Assembly (NCBI GenBank): GCA_016933415.1
Contig: JAFGAX010000147.1
Coordinates: 8,567-72,566, forward strand
Length of the DNA stretch: 64,000 nucleotides
Source of the DNA: a bacterium
GTDB taxonomy: Bacteria; Zhuqueibacterota; QNDG01; DTFT01
Direction of reading: 5' to 3'
In this document: positions 49,220-59,834 of the stretch, piece by piece
Numbering within the stretch: position 1 is the stretch's first letter
How the letters are laid out: each line of letters begins with the position of its first letter
The notes under the pieces: model-generated
What the model was told of the DNA's origin: nothing
What the model saw: the letters and a program-made list of their open reading frames with translations, nothing else
Databases searched by the model: none
Position numbers and translations under genes: made by a program

Positions 49220-50494
49220 TCAGATCCTCTCGGTTTTCGGGATGCCCGGTCCGGGCACCGTGATGACGCCGTGCAGGGCGGACTCGGCCACCGTGGCCGG
49301 ACTGGCCAGGTACACTTCGGATGAGGGTGAACCCATCCGTCCCTTGAAATTCCGGTTGGTGGTGGAAATACAGACTTCACCGTCGGCCAGAATGCCCTGA
49401 TGCGCTCCCAGGCAGGGACCGCAGCCGGGATTGCAGACCGTGACGCCCGCGGCCAGAAGGGTTTCCAGGACGCCCCCGGACACCATCTCCCGGAGTATGG
49501 TCCTGGACGCGGGTATGGCGATGCAGCGCACGTCCGGATGAATCCGTTTCCCGGCCATACGCTCGGCCGCGATCCGGAAGTCATCCAGCCTCCCGTTCGT
49601 GCAGGACCCCAGGAAAGCCTGGTGGATGCGGCGTCCGGCCATTTCGGCGACCGGCGTCACGTTGTCCACCCGGTGGGGACAGGCGATTTGGGGAACGAGT
49701 TCATCCGCCTGGACCGAAAAGGCCGACCGGATTTGCGCGTCCGGATCCGAGGACGGCCCTTTCCGGTCCATGCCGGCCGTGGATTCGAGAAAAGCGGTTG
49801 TCGTCCGGTCACAGGGGACAAACGCGCATTTCGCGCCCATTTCCATAGACAGGTTGCAGAGGGTGAAACGTTCGGAAACACTCATGGTGTCGATCGTTCC
49901 GCCGCTGAATTCGACGCTGAGGTAATCGGCCCCTTCGCTCCCGAGCCGGCCGATCAGCGAAAGAATCAGATCTTTGGCGTAGGTGTTTGCGGGGAGACAC
50001 CCCTCGACGCTGATTCGTATGGTCTCCGGGACCCGGAGCCAGGTCTTCCCGGTCGCCCAGACCGCGGCCATTTCAGTGGCGCCGATGCCCGTGGACAGGG
50101 CGCCGACGCATCCGTAGGAAGTGGTGTGGGAATCCGTGCCCAGAATCAGTTGTCCTGGAAGGGCATGCCCTTTTTCCAGCATGATCTGATGACAGATCCC
50201 CTCGCCGATGTCGTAAAACCGGCGGATACCCTGCCTGCGCACGAATTCCCGGATCGTCCTGTGGCCATTGGCTGTTTTCAGGGATTCCGCAGGAGTTCGG
50301 TGATCGAGCGGTATGACGATCTTGTCGGGATTCCAGACGAGCGAAACGCCGATTTCCTCGAATTGCCGGATCACCAGGGCCGCGTTGTCGTGGGACATGA
50401 CCATGTCGGGTTCAACAACGACGATTTCACCGGTTTGTACCGATTTTTTCCCGGCTTTATTCGCAAGTATTTTCTGAACAAGGGTTTGGCCCAT
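49220..50494 (-). CDS. Aconitase-family dehydratase large subunit (3-isopropylmalate dehydratase / homoaconitase LeuC type 2)
   Basis: GTDSHTTSYG, GSCTNGR and CNPGCGPCLG cluster-binding motifs; 424 aa; no small subunit gene adjacent. Confidence 0.8.
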   Translation of the reverse strand: MGQTLVQKILANKAGKKSVQTGEIVVVEPDMVMSHDNAALVIRQFEEIGVSLVWNPDKIVIPLDHRTPAESLKTANGHRTIREFVRRQGIRRFYDIGEGICHQIMLEKGHALPGQLILGTDSHTTSYGCVGALSTGIGATEMAAVWATGKTWLRVPETIRISVEGCLPANTYAKDLILSLIGRLGSEGADYLSVEFSGGTIDTMSVSERFTLCNLSMEMGAKCAFVPCDRTTTAFLESTAGMDRKGPSSDPDAQIRSAFSVQADELVPQIACPHRVDNVTPVAEMAGRRIHQAFLGSCTNGRLDDFRIAAERMAGKRIHPDVRCIAIPASRTILREMVSGGVLETLLAAGVTVCNPGCGPCLGAHQGILADGEVCISTTNRNFKGRMGSPSSEVYLASPATVAESALHGVITVPGPGIPKTERI

Positions 50495-50580
50495 ATGGCT
50501 TCCGAACTGAATCCGCGAATCAGAAAATAAATTTACCGAAAAAGACCATTAAAGTCAAGGCAATAACCAATTGAAAATCA

Positions 50581-50633
50581 AAAAAATAAAAGACCGTCCC
50601 AAAATTACCGGAAACGGTCTTTCTTTTTATTTT
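50581..50633. terminator. Bidirectional rho-independent terminator (ends the dap operon on the minus strand)
   Basis: 9-bp stem AAAGACCGT/ACGGTCTTT with a 16-nt loop, flanked by an A-run (50581-50588) and a T-run (50623-50633). Confidence 0.6.
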
Positions 50634-50643
50634 CACCGGCCGA

Positions 50644-51477
50644 TCAGCGCAGAATATCCTCGAGCTGAACCGACCGGTCTGTTTTTTCATCCCGGTATTT
50701 GATCAGAATCGGTGTGCATACGGACAATCCCTTTTCGCGTCCCGGGCCGGTCTGGATCGGCCTCGTTCCTGGAATGATCACGGCGTTCGGAGGTATGGTC
50801 AGGGGTCCGTCCCCGGTGCGCGACAGAATACGGTCATGGACAAGATCGTAAACGGGCGTGGATCCGGTGATCACGGTTCCGGCTCCGATCACGGCCCCTG
50901 CCCCGATTACGGTCCCCTCGTAGACGCCGCAGTTGCCGCCGATGAGCACATCATCCTCAATGATCACGGGAAGGGATCCGATGGGTTCCAGCACGCCGCC
51001 GATCTGGGATCCGGCGCTGATGTGAACGCGCCTGCCGACCTGCGCGCAGGAACCCACGAGCGCGTGCGAATCGATCATGGTGCCGTCGTCCACGTAAGCG
51101 CCGACATTCACGTACATCGGCGGCATGCATGTGACGTTCCGCCCGATATAGGCGCCGTCCCGGATGGAGGAGCCGCCCGGGACGATCCGCACGCCGTCGC
51201 GGATGCTGATGGTTTTGAGGGGAAACGTATCCTTGTCGTAGAACACGAAACGGCCGTTCACGGAATAGTCCGTCAGGCCGCCGAGCCGGAAACCGAGCAG
51301 AATGCCTTTCTTCACCCATGCGTTCACCGTCCACACGCCTTCGGTCTTCTGCGCGGCGCGCGCCCGTCCCGCGTTCAATTCCGCCATGAAGGTCCGGAGC
51401 AGACCGCGGTCCTCATCCGCGGTGCCGCCTGACTGGCCGCGTTCAAACGCCTCCTCAATCCGTTGCTTCAGATTCAA
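50644..51477 (-). CDS. dapD: Tetrahydrodipicolinate N-succinyltransferase
   Basis: N-terminal DapD-specific domain (QRIEEAFERG...WVKKGILLGFRL) plus left-handed beta-helix hexapeptide repeats; 277 aa. Confidence 0.8.
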   Translation of the reverse strand: MNLKQRIEEAFERGQSGGTADEDRGLLRTFMAELNAGRARAAQKTEGVWTVNAWVKKGILLGFRLGGLTDYSVNGRFVFYDKDTFPLKTISIRDGVRIVPGGSSIRDGAYIGRNVTCMPPMYVNVGAYVDDGTMIDSHALVGSCAQVGRRVHISAGSQIGGVLEPIGSLPVIIEDDVLIGGNCGVYEGTVIGAGAVIGAGTVITGSTPVYDLVHDRILSRTGDGPLTIPPNAVIIPGTRPIQTGPGREKGLSVCTPILIKYRDEKTDRSVQLEDILR

Positions 51478-52412
51478 GTGGATTCCTTTCCGCCCGTCTG
51501 GAGCAGCCCGAGATCCGATAGAACCCCGGTGATCCGGGCCCGGCTTGCGGGTTGCACAGGCACCAGCGGAAGACGAAGCACTTCACGGATCCGGCCCATG
51601 CTGGCGAGCGCGGCCTTGACCGGCGCCGGACTGGTCTCGATGAAATTGACGCGCATCAGCGGAAAAATCCGTTTCTGTATTTCCATCGCGCGGCCGAACG
51701 CGCCCTCCAGTCCGGCCCGGACCAGCGCGGACGTTTCAGCCGGCATTTCATTGGACACCACCGAAATCAGCCCGACGCCTCCCAGGGACAGAATCGGGAT
51801 CGTATTGGCGTCGTCTCCGGAAAGCAGGATGAAAGCGTCCGATTTCTTCACGGCCAGTTCCGAAATCTGGTCGATGTTTCCAGAAGCTTCCTTGACGCCG
51901 GCGATGTTGGAAATCTCCGAGAGCCGGAGGACAGTGCCCGGAAGCAGGTTGACGCCGGTTCGGGAAGGCACGTTGTAGAGAAAAATCGGCGCATTCACGG
52001 ACGCGGCCACAGTCTCATAATGACGGAAGAGCCCCTCCTGGGTCGGCCTGTTGTAATACGGCGTGACCGACAGCACGGCGTCCGCGCCGGCCTCATCGAT
52101 GACGGCCCGGGCCATCTCGGCGACGCGGAGCGTGTTGTTTCCGCCGGCACCGGCCATCACCGGCACGCGTCCGGCCGCGGCTTCCACCGTGATCCGAATG
52201 ACGGCCAGATGCTCCTCCCGGCTTAAAACGGCACTCTCGCCCGTACTGCCGCACGGCACCAGAAAATCGATTCCCGCCGCGATCTGCCATTCCACAAGTC
52301 GCCGGAGGGCGTCTTCGTCAAGCGAGCCGTCGTCCCGGAACGGTGTCACCAGCGCGGTGCCGCATCCCCTGAATCTGACCGCGAGCGCATTCAATCCGAT
52401 TGACCCGGTCAT
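51474..52412 (-). CDS. dapA: 4-hydroxy-tetrahydrodipicolinate synthase
   Basis: GTALVTPF, GSTGES, YNVP motifs. Start at the ATG at 52412, overlapping the dapB stop (ATGA); the ORF-track extension to 52484 is rejected. Confidence 0.85.
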   Translation of the reverse strand: MTGSIGLNALAVRFRGCGTALVTPFRDDGSLDEDALRRLVEWQIAAGIDFLVPCGSTGESAVLSREEHLAVIRITVEAAAGRVPVMAGAGGNNTLRVAEMARAVIDEAGADAVLSVTPYYNRPTQEGLFRHYETVAASVNAPIFLYNVPSRTGVNLLPGTVLRLSEISNIAGVKEASGNIDQISELAVKKSDAFILLSGDDANTIPILSLGGVGLISVVSNEMPAETSALVRAGLEGAFGRAMEIQKRIFPLMRVNFIETSPAPVKAALASMGRIREVLRLPLVPVQPASRARITGVLSDLGLLQTGGKEST

Positions 52413-53119
52413 GTCGTCCTCTCTGAAAGTATCTGCTCCAATACTTCGCTGAAATGATAGAATCCGGTCCGGCCCCGGATCCATTCCGCCGCCAGGAGCG
52501 CGCCCGCGGCCAGTCCCTCCCGTCCGCGGGCCGTGTGCACCAGCGTCACCGTGTCCACGGCCGAGTCGAAACTCACGGCATGCCGGCCCGGACTATATCC
52601 CGCGCGCACGCTGGTAACCGGGATGTCGCGGTCCGGGCGGGAACGCGACAGGAGACGGCGCAATTCCAGCGCGGTGCCGGACGGCGCGTCCTTTTTGAAT
52701 TGATGGTGCGTCTCCTCGATGAAGGAGTCGTACTGGCTGAAGGCCGAAAACAATTCGCCGGCGCGTTCCGCGACACGGTAAAACAGATTGACGCCCAGTG
52801 AGAAATTGGCCGCGTGAACAAACCCGATCCCGGACCTCCGGACTTCCGCTTCCGCATCCTTCAGGAAACCGGACCAACCCGTCGTTCCCTCCACCATCGG
52901 AAGGCCGAGTTCCGACGCGATCCGGATATTCCCGGGTACGGCTTCAGCGGACGAGAAATCGATGAGGACATCGGCGCCGGACAGCACCCCGCGGCATTCC
53001 GCGTCCGGTCGGAGCGGACGGGCGTCCCAGAACCGGGCGATGACGCCGTGTCCCTGCTCGACGGCGATCCGTTCCAGGGTACCGCCCATCCGTCCCGTTC
53101 CGATGATTCCGATATTCAT
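52409..53119 (-). CDS. dapB: 4-hydroxy-tetrahydrodipicolinate reductase
   Basis: MNIGIIGTGRMG Rossmann N-terminus, EETHHQFKKDAPSGTA; start at the ATG at 53119, overlapping the lysC stop (ATGA). Confidence 0.85.
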   Translation of the reverse strand: MNIGIIGTGRMGGTLERIAVEQGHGVIARFWDARPLRPDAECRGVLSGADVLIDFSSAEAVPGNIRIASELGLPMVEGTTGWSGFLKDAEAEVRRSGIGFVHAANFSLGVNLFYRVAERAGELFSAFSQYDSFIEETHHQFKKDAPSGTALELRRLLSRSRPDRDIPVTSVRAGYSPGRHAVSFDSAVDTVTLVHTARGREGLAAGALLAAEWIRGRTGFYHFSEVLEQILSERTT

Positions 53120-54510
53120 GGCCGGCCTCCGTCTGGGGTGAACTCGAACAGCGCGGGATCCGGATCCGAGAAAAAATGGCGGTGCAGACGTTTCACCCGG
53201 TCCTCGACTGCGTCCGCCGCGACGATCAGAACGCATGACACCGGCGATACGCCGCAGAAGAATCCTTCGTCGGCCCGGTCCAGCGTGCCGCCGATGCGCT
53301 CGCTCAGGCCCTCCCGGTCCGCATCCAGGCCGGCGCCGACCAGGGCGACAGCGGCCCTTTTTGTCCGGATGACCGGACTGCCGATCCGGCTGAGGGATTC
53401 TAGAAAGGAATCCGTTCCGGGGCCGGGCGTAAAGGTCAGCGACAGGGAGTGTCCGGCCGCGGCCGCCAGTCCCAGTTCGATGCCGGCTTTTTCCGCTTCG
53501 AGAACCGCACGGGACAGGAGGTTCCAGCCCGGAGATTCAGCGCAGGTCAGGCGGACCCAGGTCACGGGCGTCCGGAAGGAGATGGATTTGATCCGGTTCC
53601 GGCCGGCCGTTTCTTCGACGGAAACGATGGTGCCCGCGGCATCGGGCCTTGCGGTGTGCGCGATCCGTATCGGGATGCCGCACCGGACCGCGGGTTCAAC
53701 GGCTTTGGGATGCAGAACACGGGCGCCCCAGAAAGTGAGTTCAGCCGCTTCCCGGTACGAGACCGACTTGACGGTCAGCACTCCCGGAACGCGTTCCGGA
53801 TCCGCGGTCATGATGCCCGGAACATCCTTCCATATCTGTATCTCTGAAACGCCGGCCGCCGCGCCGGTCAGGGCCGCGGTGTAATCGGATCCCTCAAAAC
53901 CGAGCGTCGTGGTGATTCCGTGCCGCGTGGCTCCGATATATCCCTGAAGAACCGGGACGCGTCCCCTTTCCACGGAACCGAAAACCGCCTCGCGGATGCG
54001 GCCGGACGATTCCTCCTCCAGGCAGCGCGCACGGGTGAAACGGTCGTCCGTCAAAACCAGCTGCCGTGAATCGTGCCAGTCCGCATCGATGCCGCTTCTC
54101 CGCAGGGCCCCGCACATCAGAATGGACGAAAGCAGTTCTCCGTAGGACAGCACCTTGTCCTGTGACTGCGGAGACAATTCCCCCAGAACCGCGATTCCGC
54201 CGAGCAGACGCTCCAGTTCTTCAAACCAGTGATGCACCCGGGCGGCTTCCTGCGATTCGGACCAGTCCGTCATGAGCGCCCGGGCGGTGGTCTCGTGACC
54301 CCGGCGGATTTCCGTGAGCGCGTCCATGGCCGGTCCGCTTTTTCCGGACGCCGCTGATTCGGCCGCGTTCAGGAGCCGCCGTGTGGTCTTCCCCATGGCG
54401 GACACCACCAGCAGGGGCCCGAGCTTCAGCCGGTCCGATACGATGCGAAGCACGTTCCGGACGGCGGCCGCGTCTTTCAGCGTGGCGCCGCCGAATTTCA
54501 TGACCATCAC
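53116..54510 (-). CDS. lysC: Aspartate kinase
   Basis: KFGGATL, SAMGKTT, GFEGSDYTAA, WKDVPGIMTADP; C-terminal ACT-like regulatory region; 464 aa. Confidence 0.85.
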   Translation of the reverse strand: MMVMKFGGATLKDAAAVRNVLRIVSDRLKLGPLLVVSAMGKTTRRLLNAAESAASGKSGPAMDALTEIRRGHETTARALMTDWSESQEAARVHHWFEELERLLGGIAVLGELSPQSQDKVLSYGELLSSILMCGALRRSGIDADWHDSRQLVLTDDRFTRARCLEEESSGRIREAVFGSVERGRVPVLQGYIGATRHGITTTLGFEGSDYTAALTGAAAGVSEIQIWKDVPGIMTADPERVPGVLTVKSVSYREAAELTFWGARVLHPKAVEPAVRCGIPIRIAHTARPDAAGTIVSVEETAGRNRIKSISFRTPVTWVRLTCAESPGWNLLSRAVLEAEKAGIELGLAAAAGHSLSLTFTPGPGTDSFLESLSRIGSPVIRTKRAAVALVGAGLDADREGLSERIGGTLDRADEGFFCGVSPVSCVLIVAADAVEDRVKRLHRHFFSDPDPALFEFTPDGGRP

Positions 54511-55514
54511 GGCCGGATTTCCCCGGATTCCCTCAGGCGCCGGACCAGCCGCCGGTAGAGGTCAACGGATTCTTCCAGGTCGGCTATGGCGACGGATTCG
54601 TCCGGCGCGTGCGCGTCCAGAATGGATCCCGGCCCCAGGAGAAGGGGTCGGCCCCAGCGGTTTAAAAGCGGAATATCGGTCGTGAAGGAAACGACCGTGG
54701 TCTCGAAACCATCCACCGCCTCCAGAAAGACGGGGTCGCAGTCGAACAGCGTTTCCATCCCGACACCGGCTCCCACGGCCTGACGGACGCGTCTTTCCGT
54801 TTCGGAGGCGGGGCCCACGCAACGCATCATGACTTCGGCATTCGCGCGGTCCGGGATGATGTTCGCGGCCGTGCCCCCGGCCAGTGTGCCGATGTTCAGC
54901 GATTCCGGACCGAGAACGCCGTGGGTCAGGAGGGGCATTCCCCTGAGGCGGTTCAAGCCGATCAGAAGCTTTTCAATGGCGGATTCCCCCCGCTCCGGAT
55001 AAGCCGAATGGGCCGGTCTTCCGACCGCGGTGAGACGGAACCGAAGCGCGCCCTTGGAACCGAGGGCCAGACGGTTTTCCGTCGGTTCACCGTTGATCAG
55101 GAAACGGCAGCGGTTCGGCAGGGCATTGGCGGCGCGTGCGCCGTCGCTTCCCTTCTCCTCCCCTGCGACGAAAAGCAGACCCGCGTCGCGAACGCCCTCA
55201 CGGGCCAGGGTCAGCGCGGCTTGTACCATCGCCGCCATCGCGCCCTTGGCATCGCAGGCGCCCCGGCCGTAAATGCGGCGGTCATTCTCCGAAGGGCCGA
55301 TGAAGGGCGGAACCGTGTCGAGATGCGTGGACAAAACCACCGAGGGTTCTTCGAAAACCGCGAACAGATTCGAACGGCCGCCGTCGATCGGCTGGAGCGT
55401 CACGGCCATACCCGCGGATTCGAGAAAATCCTTCAGAAAACGGACGAGGCCCGCTTCATTTCCGGTCACGGAATCGATCGCGATCAGACGCCGTGTCAAC
55501 TCGAGTAAATCCAT
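54507..55514 (-). CDS. dapE: M20-family metallohydrolase of the ArgE/DapE type (probably succinyl-diaminopimelate desuccinylase)
   Basis: M20 metal ligands (HLDTV, GRGACDAKG, GEEKG); first gene of the lysC-dapB-dapA-dapD operon; assignment to DapE versus ArgE is by context only. Confidence 0.55.
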   Translation of the reverse strand: MDLLELTRRLIAIDSVTGNEAGLVRFLKDFLESAGMAVTLQPIDGGRSNLFAVFEEPSVVLSTHLDTVPPFIGPSENDRRIYGRGACDAKGAMAAMVQAALTLAREGVRDAGLLFVAGEEKGSDGARAANALPNRCRFLINGEPTENRLALGSKGALRFRLTAVGRPAHSAYPERGESAIEKLLIGLNRLRGMPLLTHGVLGPESLNIGTLAGGTAANIIPDRANAEVMMRCVGPASETERRVRQAVGAGVGMETLFDCDPVFLEAVDGFETTVVSFTTDIPLLNRWGRPLLLGPGSILDAHAPDESVAIADLEESVDLYRRLVRRLRESGEIRP

Positions 55515-55652
55515 GATTCTCCGTTCGATCCGGCATCGCCGGACCTGGTTAAAGTACGTAAAACCCGCAGAAAAGTCAAGGCGCGCTTCATCCGTTCACG
55601 GGCATAAAAATACATTGCTTTTTTGCCGTTTTTTCATCATTTTAAACCGGCG

Positions 55653-56360
55653 ATGAAGAAAAAACTCGTTCTCGACATTCTGCCGCAGCCCGACGACACC
55701 ACCTGCGGACCAACCAGTCTTCATGCGGTTTACCGGTACTTCGGCGAAGTGCTTCCCCTCGAACGCGTCATCTCCGAGGTCCGGCCGCTCGAGGACGGCG
55801 GCACCATGGCGGTTTATCTCGCGCACCATGCCCTGGACCGCGGATACAAAGCCACCATCTACACGTACAATCTACGGGTTTTTGATCCGACCTGGTTCGG
55901 CATGGGAGGCCGATCCCTGCGGGAGAAACTCCTGCTTCAGGCGAGGCAGCATCCCCTGGACCGGGTCCGCGATGCCAGCCGGGCCTACCTGGATTTCCTG
56001 CACAAGGGCGGACGGATCCGGTTCGAGGACGGCACGGCGCAGATCATCCGCAGGACGCTCAGCCGATCCATTCCCATTCTCACCGGCCTTCTGTCCACGT
56101 ACCTGTATCAGTGCAGCCGTGAAACCTCGGAGGGACAGCGCTTGGTTCCGGATGACGTACGGGGCGAGCCCACCGGTCATTTCGTCGTTCTGACCGGGTA
56201 CGACCAGAAGCTGCGCAAAGTGCAGATCGCCGATCCCCTGCGTCACAATCCCTATTCCTCCGATCAGGCGTATGCGGTCGACCTGCAGCGCCTCATCGGG
56301 GCCATTCTGCTGGGAATCCTGACCTATGACGCCAACCTGCTGATCATCGAGCCGCACTAA
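55653..56360 (+). CDS. Papain-like (peptidase C39-like / BtrH_N-like) cysteine peptidase or acyl/aminoacyl transferase domain protein
   Basis: Candidate catalytic Cys in DDTTCGPTSL and His in GHFVVLTGYD, a spacing typical of C39-like domains. ATG at 55653 is preferred over the TTG at 55623 of the ORF track. Confidence 0.6.
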   Translation: MKKKLVLDILPQPDDTTCGPTSLHAVYRYFGEVLPLERVISEVRPLEDGGTMAVYLAHHALDRGYKATIYTYNLRVFDPTWFGMGGRSLREKLLLQARQHPLDRVRDASRAYLDFLHKGGRIRFEDGTAQIIRRTLSRSIPILTGLLSTYLYQCSRETSEGQRLVPDDVRGEPTGHFVVLTGYDQKLRKVQIADPLRHNPYSSDQAYAVDLQRLIGAILLGILTYDANLLIIEPH

Positions 56361-56384: not shown

Positions 56385-57854
56385 ATGCCGATCCTGATCG
56401 TCGTCACCTCACCCAAGGAATGGCCGCTAAACATCCCCGGCGTCGAACTCGTCTCCGCAAAATCCTATCTGCTGGAGGAGCGTTACGGCGAAATGCGGGG
56501 CGCCAAGGTGTTCAACCTCTGCCGGGATTACCGGTACCAGAGCCTGGGCTATTACGTTTCCCTGATTTCCACGGCCCGGGGCCACACGCCGCTGCCAAGC
56601 GTCATGACCATCCAGGACATGAAATCCCAGCGGATCATCCGGTACGTGTCGGACGAGCTGGATGAACTCATCCAGAAAAGCCTGGAGCCGCTGCAGATGC
56701 GGCGGTTCACGCTCAGCGTCTACTTCGGCAAGAATTTCACAAAAAAATACAGCCGTTTGTCTCAGCACCTGTTCAATCTGTTCCCTTCCCCCCTGCTCCG
56801 GGCCCATTTCGTGTACAACAACAAATGGCAGCTGCAGAGCATCGATCCCATTTCCGCGAGCGAAATTCCGCAGGAACAACTGTCTTTCGTTCTCGAAGTC
56901 GCCTCGGAATATTTCTCGGGACGCCGGTTCTCCGTCCCCAAGCGGCTGCCCCCGCGGTACGACATCGCCATCCTCCACAATCCCGAGGAAGTGAACGGAC
57001 CGTCCGACCCGAAGGCGATCCAGAAATTCATCCGTGCCGCGGAAGCCCTGGACATGTCCGCGGAGCTCATCACCAAGGAGGATCAGGGCCGCCTGCTGGA
57101 ATACGACGCGCTCTTCATCCGGGAGACCACGTCGGTCAACCATTACACCTACCGCCTGGCGCGCCGCGCCGCAGCCGAGGGGCTCGTGGTCATCGACGAT
57201 CCCCTGTCCATCCTGCGCTGCTCGAACAAGGTGTACCTGGCCGAACTGCTGGAGCACCACAGGATTCCGGCGCCCAAGACCCTCATCGTGCACCGGGACA
57301 ACGTCGATTCCGTCATTTCCGAGCTCGGGCTTCCCGTCATCCTCAAGCAGCCCGACAGCACCTACTCGCAGGGCGTCATCAAGATCGAAGACCGGGACGG
57401 TTTCAACGCGGAGGTGGAGCGCCTGCTCGACAAGTCGGAACTGATCATCGCGCAGGAATACACGCCCACGGAATTCGACTGGCGCGTGGGCATTCTCGAC
57501 CACAAGCCGATTTATGTCTGCAAATATTTCATGATGGGACGTCACTGGCAGATCATCAAGAAAACCAGCACGGGACGCTTTCTCGAGGGCCGCTGGGAGA
57601 CGATTCCCGCGGAGATTGCGCCCAAGAAACTGATCCGGACCGCCCTCTGGGCGGCGGACCTGATCGGCGACGGTCTCTACGGCGTGGATCTCAAGGAAAT
57701 CGACGGCAATTTCACGGTCATCGAGGTCAACGACAATCCCACAATCGAGACGGGAGTCGAGGATGACATCCTCAAGGATGACCTCTACACGCGCATCATG
57801 GAGGTTTTTCTGCGCCGCATCGAACGCCTGAAGGAAAGGAATTTCAGGGAATGA
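56385..57854 (+). CDS. RimK-type ATP-grasp amidoligase with a roughly 190-aa uncharacterised N-terminal domain
   Basis: C-terminal two thirds carry a pre-ATP-grasp region and the ATP-grasp fold (ILKQPDSTYSQGV, ELIIAQEY, VIEVNDNP); N-terminal domain with no recognised motif; 489 aa. Confidence 0.8.
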   Translation: MPILIVVTSPKEWPLNIPGVELVSAKSYLLEERYGEMRGAKVFNLCRDYRYQSLGYYVSLISTARGHTPLPSVMTIQDMKSQRIIRYVSDELDELIQKSLEPLQMRRFTLSVYFGKNFTKKYSRLSQHLFNLFPSPLLRAHFVYNNKWQLQSIDPISASEIPQEQLSFVLEVASEYFSGRRFSVPKRLPPRYDIAILHNPEEVNGPSDPKAIQKFIRAAEALDMSAELITKEDQGRLLEYDALFIRETTSVNHYTYRLARRAAAEGLVVIDDPLSILRCSNKVYLAELLEHHRIPAPKTLIVHRDNVDSVISELGLPVILKQPDSTYSQGVIKIEDRDGFNAEVERLLDKSELIIAQEYTPTEFDWRVGILDHKPIYVCKYFMMGRHWQIIKKTSTGRFLEGRWETIPAEIAPKKLIRTALWAADLIGDGLYGVDLKEIDGNFTVIEVNDNPTIETGVEDDILKDDLYTRIMEVFLRRIERLKERNFRE

Positions 57855-59089
57855 GCCGGAAACCGCTCGGCCTTTTCGGCGGTTTCGGCATCGAGCTTGA
57901 ATACATGATCGTCCGCGGCCGGGATTGCTCGGTTTTCCCCGTTTCAGACCGCGTGCTCAGCCGGTTCAACGGATCACTGTCCTCTGAAATCCGCCGGGGC
58001 GCGCTCGACTGGTCCAATGAACTGGTTCTCCATGTCATCGAACTGAAGACCCACGGCCCTGCGCCCAGGCTCGAATCTCTGCCCTCCCTTTTTCAAACGG
58101 ACGTCTCCGCGATCAACGCCTTTCTGGAACCGCAGGGCGGCCGGCTTCTGCCGACGGCCATGCATCCCTGGATGGACCCGTCACGGGAGACGCGGCTTTG
58201 GCCGCACGAATACAACGAAGTGTACGAGGCCTACAACCGCATTTTCGGCTGCAGCGGCCATGGATGGGCCAATCTCCAGAGCATGCACCTGAACCTGCCC
58301 TTCGCGGACGACCGTGAATTCGGACGCCTGCATGCGGCCATCCGCCTGATCCTCCCCCTTCTGCCCGCCCTGGCCGCGAGTTCGCCGGTCGTCGAAGGCC
58401 GGCCCACGGGGCTTCTCGACAGCCGGATCGAGTTTTACAGAAAGAACCAGGCCCGTGTGCCTTCCCTCACGGGCTCGGTCATCCCGGAACCCGTCCATAC
58501 GGAGGCGGATTATCGGCGCGAGATACTGGCGCGTCTTTACCGTGACATCGCCCCTCTGGATGAAGCCCGCTGTCTTCAGCACGAGTGGCTGAACTCGCGG
58601 GGCGCCATCGCCCGATTCGAGCGTCATGCGATCGAGATCCGGCTGATCGACGTTCAGGAATGCCCCCTGGCTGACCTGACCGTGGCGGCCGCGGTGGTCG
58701 GCGCGCTCCGCCTGCTGGATTCCGCGGAAGTCACGGGCCCGGACCCGCGGCGCTTCTTTCCCACGGACGCACTATCGGACCTGCTGACGCGGACCATCCG
58801 GGACGGCGAATACGCGCCGGTTCCGGATCGATCCTATCAGAAAGCGCTCGGGCTCCGTCCGGACGCGTCGGCGACAGCGGGCGCGATCTGGCGCCGGCTG
58901 GCGGAGCGCATGTCCGGAGATCTTCTCGATCCCGTCTGGCACGCGCCGCTGAAGACGATTCTCGACCGGGGTCCGCTGGCCCGCCGGATGCTGCGCGTTC
59001 TGAACGATGATTTTTCCCGATCCGCCGTGATGGCGCTCTGCAACAGGCTGGCGGACTGCCTTTCCGAAGGACGGCTGCTGGATGCCTGA
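57851..59089 (+). CDS. GCS2/YbdK-family carboxylate-amine ligase (glutamate-cysteine-ligase-like)
   Basis: GIELEYMIV, HVIELKT and the HLNLP region typical of the GCS2 glutamine-synthetase-like fold; start overlaps the ATP-grasp stop (ATGA); 412 aa. Confidence 0.8.
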   Translation: MSRKPLGLFGGFGIELEYMIVRGRDCSVFPVSDRVLSRFNGSLSSEIRRGALDWSNELVLHVIELKTHGPAPRLESLPSLFQTDVSAINAFLEPQGGRLLPTAMHPWMDPSRETRLWPHEYNEVYEAYNRIFGCSGHGWANLQSMHLNLPFADDREFGRLHAAIRLILPLLPALAASSPVVEGRPTGLLDSRIEFYRKNQARVPSLTGSVIPEPVHTEADYRREILARLYRDIAPLDEARCLQHEWLNSRGAIARFERHAIEIRLIDVQECPLADLTVAAAVVGALRLLDSAEVTGPDPRRFFPTDALSDLLTRTIRDGEYAPVPDRSYQKALGLRPDASATAGAIWRRLAERMSGDLLDPVWHAPLKTILDRGPLARRMLRVLNDDFSRSAVMALCNRLADCLSEGRLLDA

Positions 59090-59834
59090 CCGCCTTTTTC
59101 TGGTCTTGACCTGCGAGCACGCCTCGCCATTCCTTCCGTCTGATTTCCGGAAAAAATTCCGCGATCGGATTGAACGGATACCGGAGCATCGTCTGTTTGA
59201 CCGCGGCGCGGCGGTACTGGCCCGGAATCTTGCGGACCGTTTCCGTGCTCCCCTGATCCGCTCCCGTTTTTCCCGTTTGCTCGTGGATCTCAACCGGTCC
59301 GAGGAACATCGGGAATTGTTCTCGGAATTGTCCGCGACACTGCCGGAAGCGCGGAAAAAAGCCCTGATCTCCCGGGTGCACCGTCGATACCGCGACTCCG
59401 TCGAGAGCCTCGTGGACCGTCTGATCCGCCGGGGAACCGCCGTCCTCCATGTTTCCGTACACACGTTCACGCCGGTCCTGAACGGCGAGTGCCGCCAAAC
59501 GGGAATCGGACTGCTTTTCGACCCTTCCCGTTCCTTCGAGAGACGGTTGTGCCTTTTCTGGCGGCGAAGGTTGAAAGACGAGTGTCCCGGCTTGGCGATC
59601 CATTTCAACCGGCCCTATCATGGCCGGTCGGACGGATTCACGAAGTGTCTGAGAGAAGGAAGGTCGGACAGCCGATATGCGGGCATTGAATTGGAGGTCA
59701 ATCAGTTGTTCTTCGCGCCCGGAAAAACCGTGGAGGCGCGTCGCGTCAGGGGCGCCATCGCGCGGAGCCTCGCGGCCGCGGTTTCGGATCTGACCGGCGC
59801 GCCCGCTTCCGGTTCAGTCCGAACACGAGGTTGA
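59082..59834 (+). CDS. N-formylglutamate amidohydrolase (FGase) family zinc hydrolase
   Basis: LVLTCEHAS, LLVDLNRS, LHVSVHTFTP motifs of the FGase family; start overlaps the upstream gene by 8 nt; 250 aa. Confidence 0.75.
   Translation: MPDRLFLVLTCEHASPFLPSDFRKKFRDRIERIPEHRLFDRGAAVLARNLADRFRAPLIRSRFSRLLVDLNRSEEHRELFSELSATLPEARKKALISRVHRRYRDSVESLVDRLIRRGTAVLHVSVHTFTPVLNGECRQTGIGLLFDPSRSFERRLCLFWRRRLKDECPGLAIHFNRPYHGRSDGFTKCLREGRSDSRYAGIELEVNQLFFAPGKTVEARRVRGAIARSLAAAVSDLTGAPASGSVRTRG

Follow-up and report, generated by a model that had tools for sequence, protein, structure and literature searches.

Sequence and gene context are reportedly the grounds on which Iyer, Abhiman, Burroughs and Aravind (Mol Biosyst 2009) defined the RLAN domain (RimK-like ATPgrasp N-terminal domain), whose genes lie near those of a papain-like peptidase and a GCS2/COG2170 ligase or, instead, encode a GNAT fusion. 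The window analyzed here, a 64,000-nucleotide stretch of contig JAFGAX010000147.1 from a bacterium of the Zhuqueibacterota, encodes such an RLAN ligase in a reading frame at 56385..57854 (+ strand, 489 amino acids); the interval followed up, 56385-56960, comprises codons 1-192 of this frame. The window protein agrees with the family in its hidden Markov model match, in the position of RLAN before a RimK-like ATP-grasp, and in its gene neighborhood, which encodes a papain-like peptidase, a GCS2/COG2170 ligase and an N-formylglutamate amidohydrolase-family hydrolase (FGase). The alternative GNAT fusion is also found among its relatives, and no difference from the family was seen in the window protein. 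What is new is that a confident structural model suggests that this "uncharacterized alpha+beta" domain is an ATP-grasp-like pseudo-module, most likely a shrunken and catalytically dead copy of an ATP-grasp.

Duplication of an ATP-grasp inside one polypeptide has a precedent in the large subunit of carbamoyl-phosphate synthetase, in which the tandem ATP-grasp modules are both full-length and catalytic. In the window protein, by contrast, the presumed N-terminal copy falls ~110 residues short of that length and has none of the catalytic residues. LysX and ArgX (PDB 3vpc, 3vpb, 1uc8 and 5k2m) are active single-module enzymes that need the LysW carrier, whereas the window operon has no LysW-like gene and RLAN lacks their catalytic strands. 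RimK, the S6 poly-alpha-L-glutamate ligase (PDB 4iwx, 5zct and 7qys), is a single module of ~300 amino acids that forms a homotetramer and has no RLAN. Residues 192-489 of the window protein share its ATP-grasp and all conserved ATP, Mg and acyl-phosphate residues, but the window protein carries RLAN as well. In its canonical form, RimK is active as a dimer of dimers (PMC10092738).

The N domain of the cyanophycin synthetase CphA1, of ~160 residues, had a long obscure function and binds the growing polymer (PMC9262961). RLAN resembles it as an accessory N-terminal domain ahead of an ATP-grasp in a peptide-forming ligase, but the CphA1 N domain has another fold, distantly like that of M16 peptidases and often with an HxxEH zinc site, and similarity to cyanophycin synthetase was detected in the ATP-grasp part only. 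Given that RLAN has no HxxEH motif and has different structural neighbors, the CphA1 N domain was rejected as an RLAN homolog and is kept as a functional analogy.

Domain boundaries and family membership

The ligase divides into the following features:

56385..56918, + strand: RLAN domain, residues 1-178 of the ligase (Pfam PF14401, AlphaFold AF2 model, Foldseek); predicted fold ATP-grasp-like, truncated and without catalytic residues
56535..56579, + strand: invariant RLAN core, residues Y51-R65 (conservation in 212 homologs, modeled secondary structure)
56919..56957, + strand: inter-domain linker, residues 179-191 (predicted local distance difference test, pLDDT, and conservation)
56958..57854, + strand: active RimK-like ATP-grasp module with pre-ATP-grasp, central and C-terminal parts, residues 192-489 plus stop (PF08443, TIGR00768, profile matches)

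A sequence-only reading of the window had placed about 190 uncharacterized residues ahead of a complete RimK-type ATP-grasp unit, had tentatively suggested an RLAN-type identity for them, and had named a Pfam comparison as a check. That comparison returned PF14401 over residues 26-170, so that the suggested identity is borne out at E=6e-46. The cut-off of this model is 25 bits and the match reaches 156.2 (E=6.2e-46), with an alignment that covers model positions 2-148 of 150. In the AF2 model the folded RLAN domain comprises residues 1-178 and starts ahead of the Pfam boundary. NCBIfam holds no model for the domain, and in a Pfam scan of diverse N-terminal domains of this kind, 47/47 matched RLAN only. 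Judged by its sequence, the ligase is a typical member of an already known and computationally defined family.

The start of the active module was placed by three comparisons, which agree that residue 1 of a canonical RimK-type enzyme maps to about residue 192. TIGR00768 aligned to residues 217-455 at model positions 25-258; a family profile of 35 homologs aligned residues 236-455 to residues 54-268 of E. coli RimK; and in the full-length AlphaFold model the first pre-ATP-grasp strand lies at 193-198. Because the protein begins with the N-terminus given in the sequence-only reading and the three registers coincide, the ~190 residues do precede a complete ATP-grasp unit. Linker residues 179-191 are disordered in the full-length model, with pLDDT below 50.

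The domain is also as uncharacterized as it had been said to be. Searches of the PDB with the RLAN sequence or profile found no solved structure, the single-sequence search giving only noise, and literature searches on RLAN, PF14401 and the gene combination of the operon found no experimental paper on the domain or the operon in the library searched. The family itself is large and widely spread. At 50% identity, an exhaustive search with the N-terminal domain alone gave 748 clusters. When one genome was scanned for each species, there were at least 600 matches, from Planctomycetota, Verrucomicrobiota, Fibrobacterota, Bacteroidota, Gamma- and Deltaproteobacteria, Nitrospirota, Acidobacteriota and others. 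Among the 120 matches listed by a word-indexed search, all are ~489 amino acids long (484-520), carry PF14401 and an ATP-grasp model, and are at least 59% identical to the query. The identical protein also occurs in a public read-archive assembly.

The predicted fold of RLAN

RLAN was modeled as residues 1-186 with an alignment of 47 sequences down to 30% identity, and the model is confident (pLDDT 93.2; predicted template modeling score, pTM, 0.86). In a Foldseek comparison with the PDB, 39/39 of the best matches of this model are ATP-grasp proteins, among them ArgX, RimK (4iwx), LysX (1uc8), synapsin, ITPK1, MdnB/C, PsnB and biotin carboxylase. In structure, the RLAN model is most like LysX and ArgX, to which the active module is also well matched in sequence, and RimK is likewise among the best structural matches. 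The match to ArgX 3vpc has E=1.7e-4, prob 1.00 and a query-normalized TM-score (TMq) of 0.58. The alignments extend over 250-300 target columns, which is the whole enzyme and thus goes beyond its pre-ATP-grasp part. Since more than 108 residues must superpose to give a TMq of 0.58 for a query of 186, and the 90-residue first half cannot supply that many, the second half of RLAN contributes to the match. The three-part fold of the ATP-grasp is therefore found, in the predicted structure, for RLAN itself.

The same correspondence can be followed between RLAN and the active module of its own polypeptide. An offset scan of secondary structure, with RLAN residues 20-100 set against the ATP-grasp, is best at +200. 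RLAN elements 20-24, 25-35, 41-44 and 54-64 pair with 225-229, 231-239, 242-246 and 254-264, and elements 68-70, 73-80 and 82-91 pair with 268-270, 273-280 and 282-291. The first 90 residues thus carry the pre-ATP-grasp order of strands and helices, so that the Rossmann-like alternation noticed in the sequence-only reading is real. Beyond these elements, one strand-helix unit of RLAN stands in the place of the lid domain of the active module. Farther on, the RLAN hairpin 137-155 pairs with 364-382, and helix 163-177 pairs with 414-425. RLAN stops at this helix, and strands 431-450, with D435, E447 and N449, have no counterpart; nor does RLAN have a lysine at the position of the ATP-binding K321. 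Given that the ATP-binding lysine and the positions of the Mg-binding Asp, Glu and Asn are missing from the model, RLAN is at most a pseudo-enzyme member of the ATP-grasp superfamily. The pre-ATP-grasp part would have been kept almost element for element, and the central and C-terminal parts would have been reduced to remnants.

A profile-profile alignment (hhalign) of RLAN with the active module, of marginal significance, reproduces this register and is collinear over RLAN 15-179 and positions 32-241 of the 300 of the module. It pairs G66..P71..K80 with G266..P273..K282, and P136..F142..W148-Q149 with P376..Y381..W388-Q389. RLAN itself has no ATP-grasp match in Pfam or NCBIfam. The sequence-only reading had held that its proposal would fall if the domain were simply a divergent, duplicated pre-ATP-grasp half of the kind found in ordinary RimK enzymes. 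Part of that description stands, in that the modeled domain is an ATP-grasp-like duplicate, but the duplicate is larger than a pre-ATP-grasp half, and ordinary RimK, at ~300 amino acids, is a single module.

A relationship to the eukaryotic ribosomal protein eS12, of the L7Ae/L30e fold, was also considered for RLAN residues 87-150 (DNA 56643-56834), where a borderline profile match reached E=0.0015. It was rejected given that no L7Ae or S12e match was found in Pfam for any member of the alignment even at E<=1, and that an eS12-like fold is also absent among the Foldseek matches listed. The match is probably a chance beta-alpha-beta resemblance.

Conservation of RLAN and of the active module

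Conservation was computed over 212 homologs, with overall identities of 29% to 96%. The mean frequency of the top residue is 0.60 in RLAN, 0.66 in the ATP-grasp and 0.36 in the linker, which puts RLAN close to the catalytic module. The core of RLAN, Y51-R65, has the family consensus YQSxGYYVSLLAxAR; here conservation reaches 95% or more at every one of Y51, Q52, G55, Y56, Y57, V58, S59, L60, A62, A64 and R65. Outside the core, the same level is reached in RLAN by Y28, N44, P71, F114, G115, P136, F142 and W148; C46 is conserved at 85-95%, and H67 lies outside the 85%-conserved positions. In the model, the core forms a loop and a helix, placed at the beta3-loop-helix element of a pre-ATP-grasp domain, and its register falls on R246-H253, the N-domain loop that is best conserved in the active module. 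The block is unchanged in the GNAT fusions.

The active module retains K282, K321, Q357, D365-W366-R367, D435, E447 and N449 at 95% or more. As the residues for ATP, Mg and the acyl-phosphate are thus kept, the ligase is expected, from its sequence, to be functional. The profile of 35 homologs finds the structures of RimK (from E. coli and Pseudomonas), LysX, D-Ala-D-Ala ligase and glutathione synthetase, and PF08443 passes its cut-off (35.7 versus 21). TIGR00768, however, scores 65.4 against a cut-off of 143.4, and the S6-glutamate ligase model NF007764 scores 26.1 against 331; on these scores, the window ligase is not RimK proper. Its conserved operon partners are GCS2 and a peptidase and not rpsF.

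Genomic contexts of RLAN-grasp genes

RLAN-grasp genes were found in three contexts. In the first, the operon type (83 related loci), a gene for a C39-like peptidase lies directly upstream in 75/83, a GCS2 gene lies directly downstream in 76/83, and FGase is present in 45/83. The operon proteins are 45-65% identical to those of the window and occur across many phyla. In the second, a RimI-like GNAT is fused ahead of RLAN-ATP-grasp in proteins of ~650 amino acids. These fusions were recovered by an alignment-based metagenome scan, the single-sequence scan having given none, and they account for at least 43 loci, with 0 occurrences of C39-like, GCS2 or FGase genes within 7 kb. Among the 27 GNAT-fusion loci analyzed for neighbors, no neighbor family occurs in more than 6. 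In the third context, the RLAN-grasp genes are orphans, and the genes next to them, among them mfd, nrdR and one for an RNA methyltransferase, are unrelated. In all three contexts, and in every related locus with enough sequence (164 were fetched), RLAN is directly N-terminal to the ATP-grasp.

The GNAT-RLAN-grasp fusions may work as enzymes on their own, with an N-acyl peptide as product. The class is widespread and is seen in metagenome loci L084-L131 and in proteins P0172, P0187, P0231, P0200 and P0185; in three loci (L116, L121 and L129), the GNAT is a separate reading frame just upstream. An assignment of the fusions as Ngg (N-acetylglutaminylglutamine synthetase), which also combines a GNAT with an ATP-grasp, was rejected, given that P0187, P0172 and P0231 have no Ngg-type match in NCBIfam, where TIGR03103 is the model that we take to represent the GNAT of the Ngg cassette, and that their GNAT resembles RimI. 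The absence of a conserved amidotransferase neighbor, which for Ngg would be of the AsnO type, at the GNAT-fusion loci also speaks against the link.

Other loci depart from these patterns. At L003/L009, from Candidatus Tectomicrobia (BPKO01000002.1, 1-12236), the triad of C39-like, RLAN-grasp and GCS2 genes is preceded by genes for lysine 2,3-aminomutase, two D-Ala-D-Ala-ligase-like ATP-grasp proteins, a GNAT and a CitMHS transporter, and is followed by that for an MscS mechanosensitive channel. This may be a compatible-solute or osmoadaptation neighborhood, but it is a single locus and could be a coincidence. In P0192 a C39_2 fragment is fused upstream of RLAN, and in P0210 (707 amino acids) RLAN is followed by low-complexity, frameshift-like sequence and a GCS2-like end. 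Both are probably gene-calling or assembly artifacts across adjacent operon genes and not true fusions.

Proposed role of RLAN and its alternatives

Taken as a whole, we give about an even chance to the reading that RLAN is a dead ATP-grasp copy acting as a built-in, non-catalytic pseudo-subunit of the ligase. Joined by the flexible 13-residue linker to the intact RimK-like ligase, RLAN would pack on the active module like the second subunit in RimK-type oligomers, such that the fused dead copy would replace a partner subunit. The full-length model, with pTM 0.77 despite the disordered linker, suggests that the two modules are packed in a defined way. The YQSxGYYVSLLAxAR loop-helix would then keep hold of the acceptor, or of the growing peptide product, at its distal part. 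Such a holding role for the degenerate cleft, which would resemble that of the CphA1 N domain, is conceivable but somewhat doubtful. The further proposal, that the pseudo-enzyme copy forms an intramolecular heterodimer with the active module and that its cleft, as a second and non-catalytic site, sets product length or processivity, is more speculative and on the unlikely side. In the operon, the neighboring GCS2 ligase would make a carboxylate product, which the active module would lengthen, probably with glutamate, and which the C39-like peptidase and FGase would trim or transfer.

Several points weigh against this picture. The packing of the modules and the surface position of the conserved residues are presumptions, the evidence for packing being the pTM of the full-length model. 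The ligase scores below the RimK-family cut-off (65 versus 143 bits), and both the addition of glutamate by the ligase and the ligand of RLAN are points that we infer. The duplication signal from hhalign is marginal, with P=0.15 for 60 sequences and P=0.042 for 212 sequences with secondary structure, compared with P=0.37-0.53 for reversed controls. The profile comparison was thus dropped as proof of an internal duplication, given that the collinear alignment is only marginal (P=0.15 to 0.042).

The sequence-only reading had seen hints of a substrate-recruitment or carrier-docking module, whose function would fix the substrate of the whole operon. As a rival, RLAN would dock or recruit a carrier protein or one of its operon partners, be it the C39-like peptidase or the GCS2 ligase. 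The adjacency of the C39-like, RLAN-grasp and GCS2 genes in ~90% of the 83 loci, across many phyla and with genes that overlap or abut, speaks for such a role, as does the C39_2 fragment fused upstream of RLAN in P0192. The contexts without partners, however, do not fit: at 43 or more GNAT-RLAN-ATP-grasp loci, C39-like, GCS2 and FGase genes are all absent within 7 kb and no neighbor is conserved, the orphan genes lie beside unrelated housekeeping genes, and the GNAT fusions carry the YQSxGYYVSLLAxAR block unaltered. Nor was a gene for a LysW-type carrier protein found in the operon. The GNAT fusions and orphans leave the earlier proposal unsupported, and docking is now quite improbable. Because RLAN goes with the ATP-grasp whatever the partners, it most likely serves the ligase itself and not docking to the C39-like or GCS2 proteins.

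Three other roles were weighed as well. RLAN could be an allosteric sensor, whose cleft binds a small metabolite (an amino acid, a nucleotide or an end product) and switches the ligase on or off. A conserved pseudo-enzyme cleft is typical of ligand sensing, the most conserved residues gather in one loop-helix at the site of the conserved ATP-grasp N-domain loop, and RLAN is kept in all three genomic contexts; yet the Pfam and NCBIfam scans recognized no ligand-binding motif, and the present data would look the same for binding of an acceptor or product, so that we consider a sensor unlikely. A purely architectural domain, for oligomerization or stability and with no ligand-binding role, would be in keeping with the fixed packing suggested by the full-length pTM of 0.77 and with related ATP-grasp enzymes that work as dimers or tetramers (PMC10092738). 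A structural role, however, would not normally hold a 15-residue block of polar and aromatic residues (Y51, Q52, Y56, Y57, S59 and R65) at 95% or more across 29%-96% identity, and this makes a solely structural function distinctly unlikely. Highly improbable, finally, is a cryptic active site that would make RLAN an enzyme in its own right, as the CphA1 N domain proved to be (PMC9262961). That precedent and the invariant polar residues N44, Y51, Q52 and R65, together with C46 at 85-95%, could be read in its favor, but RLAN has no HxxEH or other known catalytic motif and matches no enzyme family besides RLAN, H67 is not among the positions conserved at 85%, and the structural neighbors are ATP-grasp enzymes whose catalytic elements RLAN lacks.

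The operon and its flanks in the window

The ligase gene is the second of four tightly packed genes on the + strand, of which the other three are:

55623..56360, + strand: C39-like papain-fold cysteine peptidase, 245 amino acids (PF13529 Peptidase_C39_2, E=2e-9)
57851..59089, + strand: GCS2/YbdK-type carboxylate-amine ligase, 412 amino acids (PF04107, E=8e-28)
59082..59834, + strand: FGase, 250 amino acids, optional fourth gene (PF05013, E=1.6e-22)

The GCS2 start overlaps the ligase stop by 4 nucleotides (57851-57854), and the FGase start overlaps the GCS2 end by 8 nucleotides (59082-59089). These overlaps of start and stop suggest that the ligase, GCS2 and FGase genes are translationally coupled. 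For the C39-like gene, the listed TTG start (55623-55655) gives an odd N-terminus, MPFFHHFKPAM..., and tblastn matches of C39-like homologs begin ~10 codons inside the listed start; the real start may be an internal ATG (MKKKLVLD...). The predicted catalytic cysteine of this protein lies shortly after that point, in a TTCGPTSL motif.

The glutathione pathway of GshA and GshB, together with phytochelatin synthase, is an established system with the same enzyme classes as the operon, that is, a glutamate-cysteine-ligase-type enzyme (GCS2), a GshB-related ATP-grasp and a papain-fold enzyme. The operon proteins, however, fall well short of the equivalog cut-offs in score, and RLAN is absent from GshB, so that the analogy holds for the operon only. 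The two amide ligases and two hydrolases suggest that the operon makes and trims a small peptide, or a peptide tag, that contains glutamate. The operon chemistry, like the pseudo-subunit and ligand-holding roles, is what we infer.

The flanks hold housekeeping genes on the opposite strand, with a diaminopimelate/lysine cluster on one side and rluD-like, lspA, dksA-like and ileS genes on the other, and GC content is uniform across the window. The lysine/diaminopimelate cluster (49220-55514) lies on the minus strand, divergent from the operon:

49220-50494, minus strand: aconitase-family large subunit
50644-51477, minus strand: tetrahydrodipicolinate N-succinyltransferase
51474-52484, minus strand: DapA
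52409-53236, minus strand: DapB
53116-54510, minus strand: aspartokinase-type amino-acid kinase
54507-55514, minus strand: M20 peptidase of the DapE/ArgE type

Between 50644 and 55514, each gene of the cluster shares a few bases with the next, whereas the DapB and aspartokinase reading frames overlap by ~120 nucleotides as listed; the start codon of DapB or of the aspartokinase is probably farther downstream than listed. The window thus holds nothing unusual, its ligase being a typical family member in a housekeeping neighborhood.

Implications for the family

The RLAN-ATP-grasp family is very common, yet we found no experiment or structure for it or for its operon. If the proposed role of RLAN as a dead, built-in pseudo-subunit is true, the family would represent an undescribed way to build an ATP-grasp peptide ligase, common to the C39-like/RLAN-grasp/GCS2 operon, the GNAT fusions and the orphans. 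The product of the operon would then be a small peptide metabolite or a peptide tag made by two ligases and two hydrolases, and the reading of RLAN as a dead copy points the search for the substrate to the active sites of the GCS2 and ATP-grasp enzymes.

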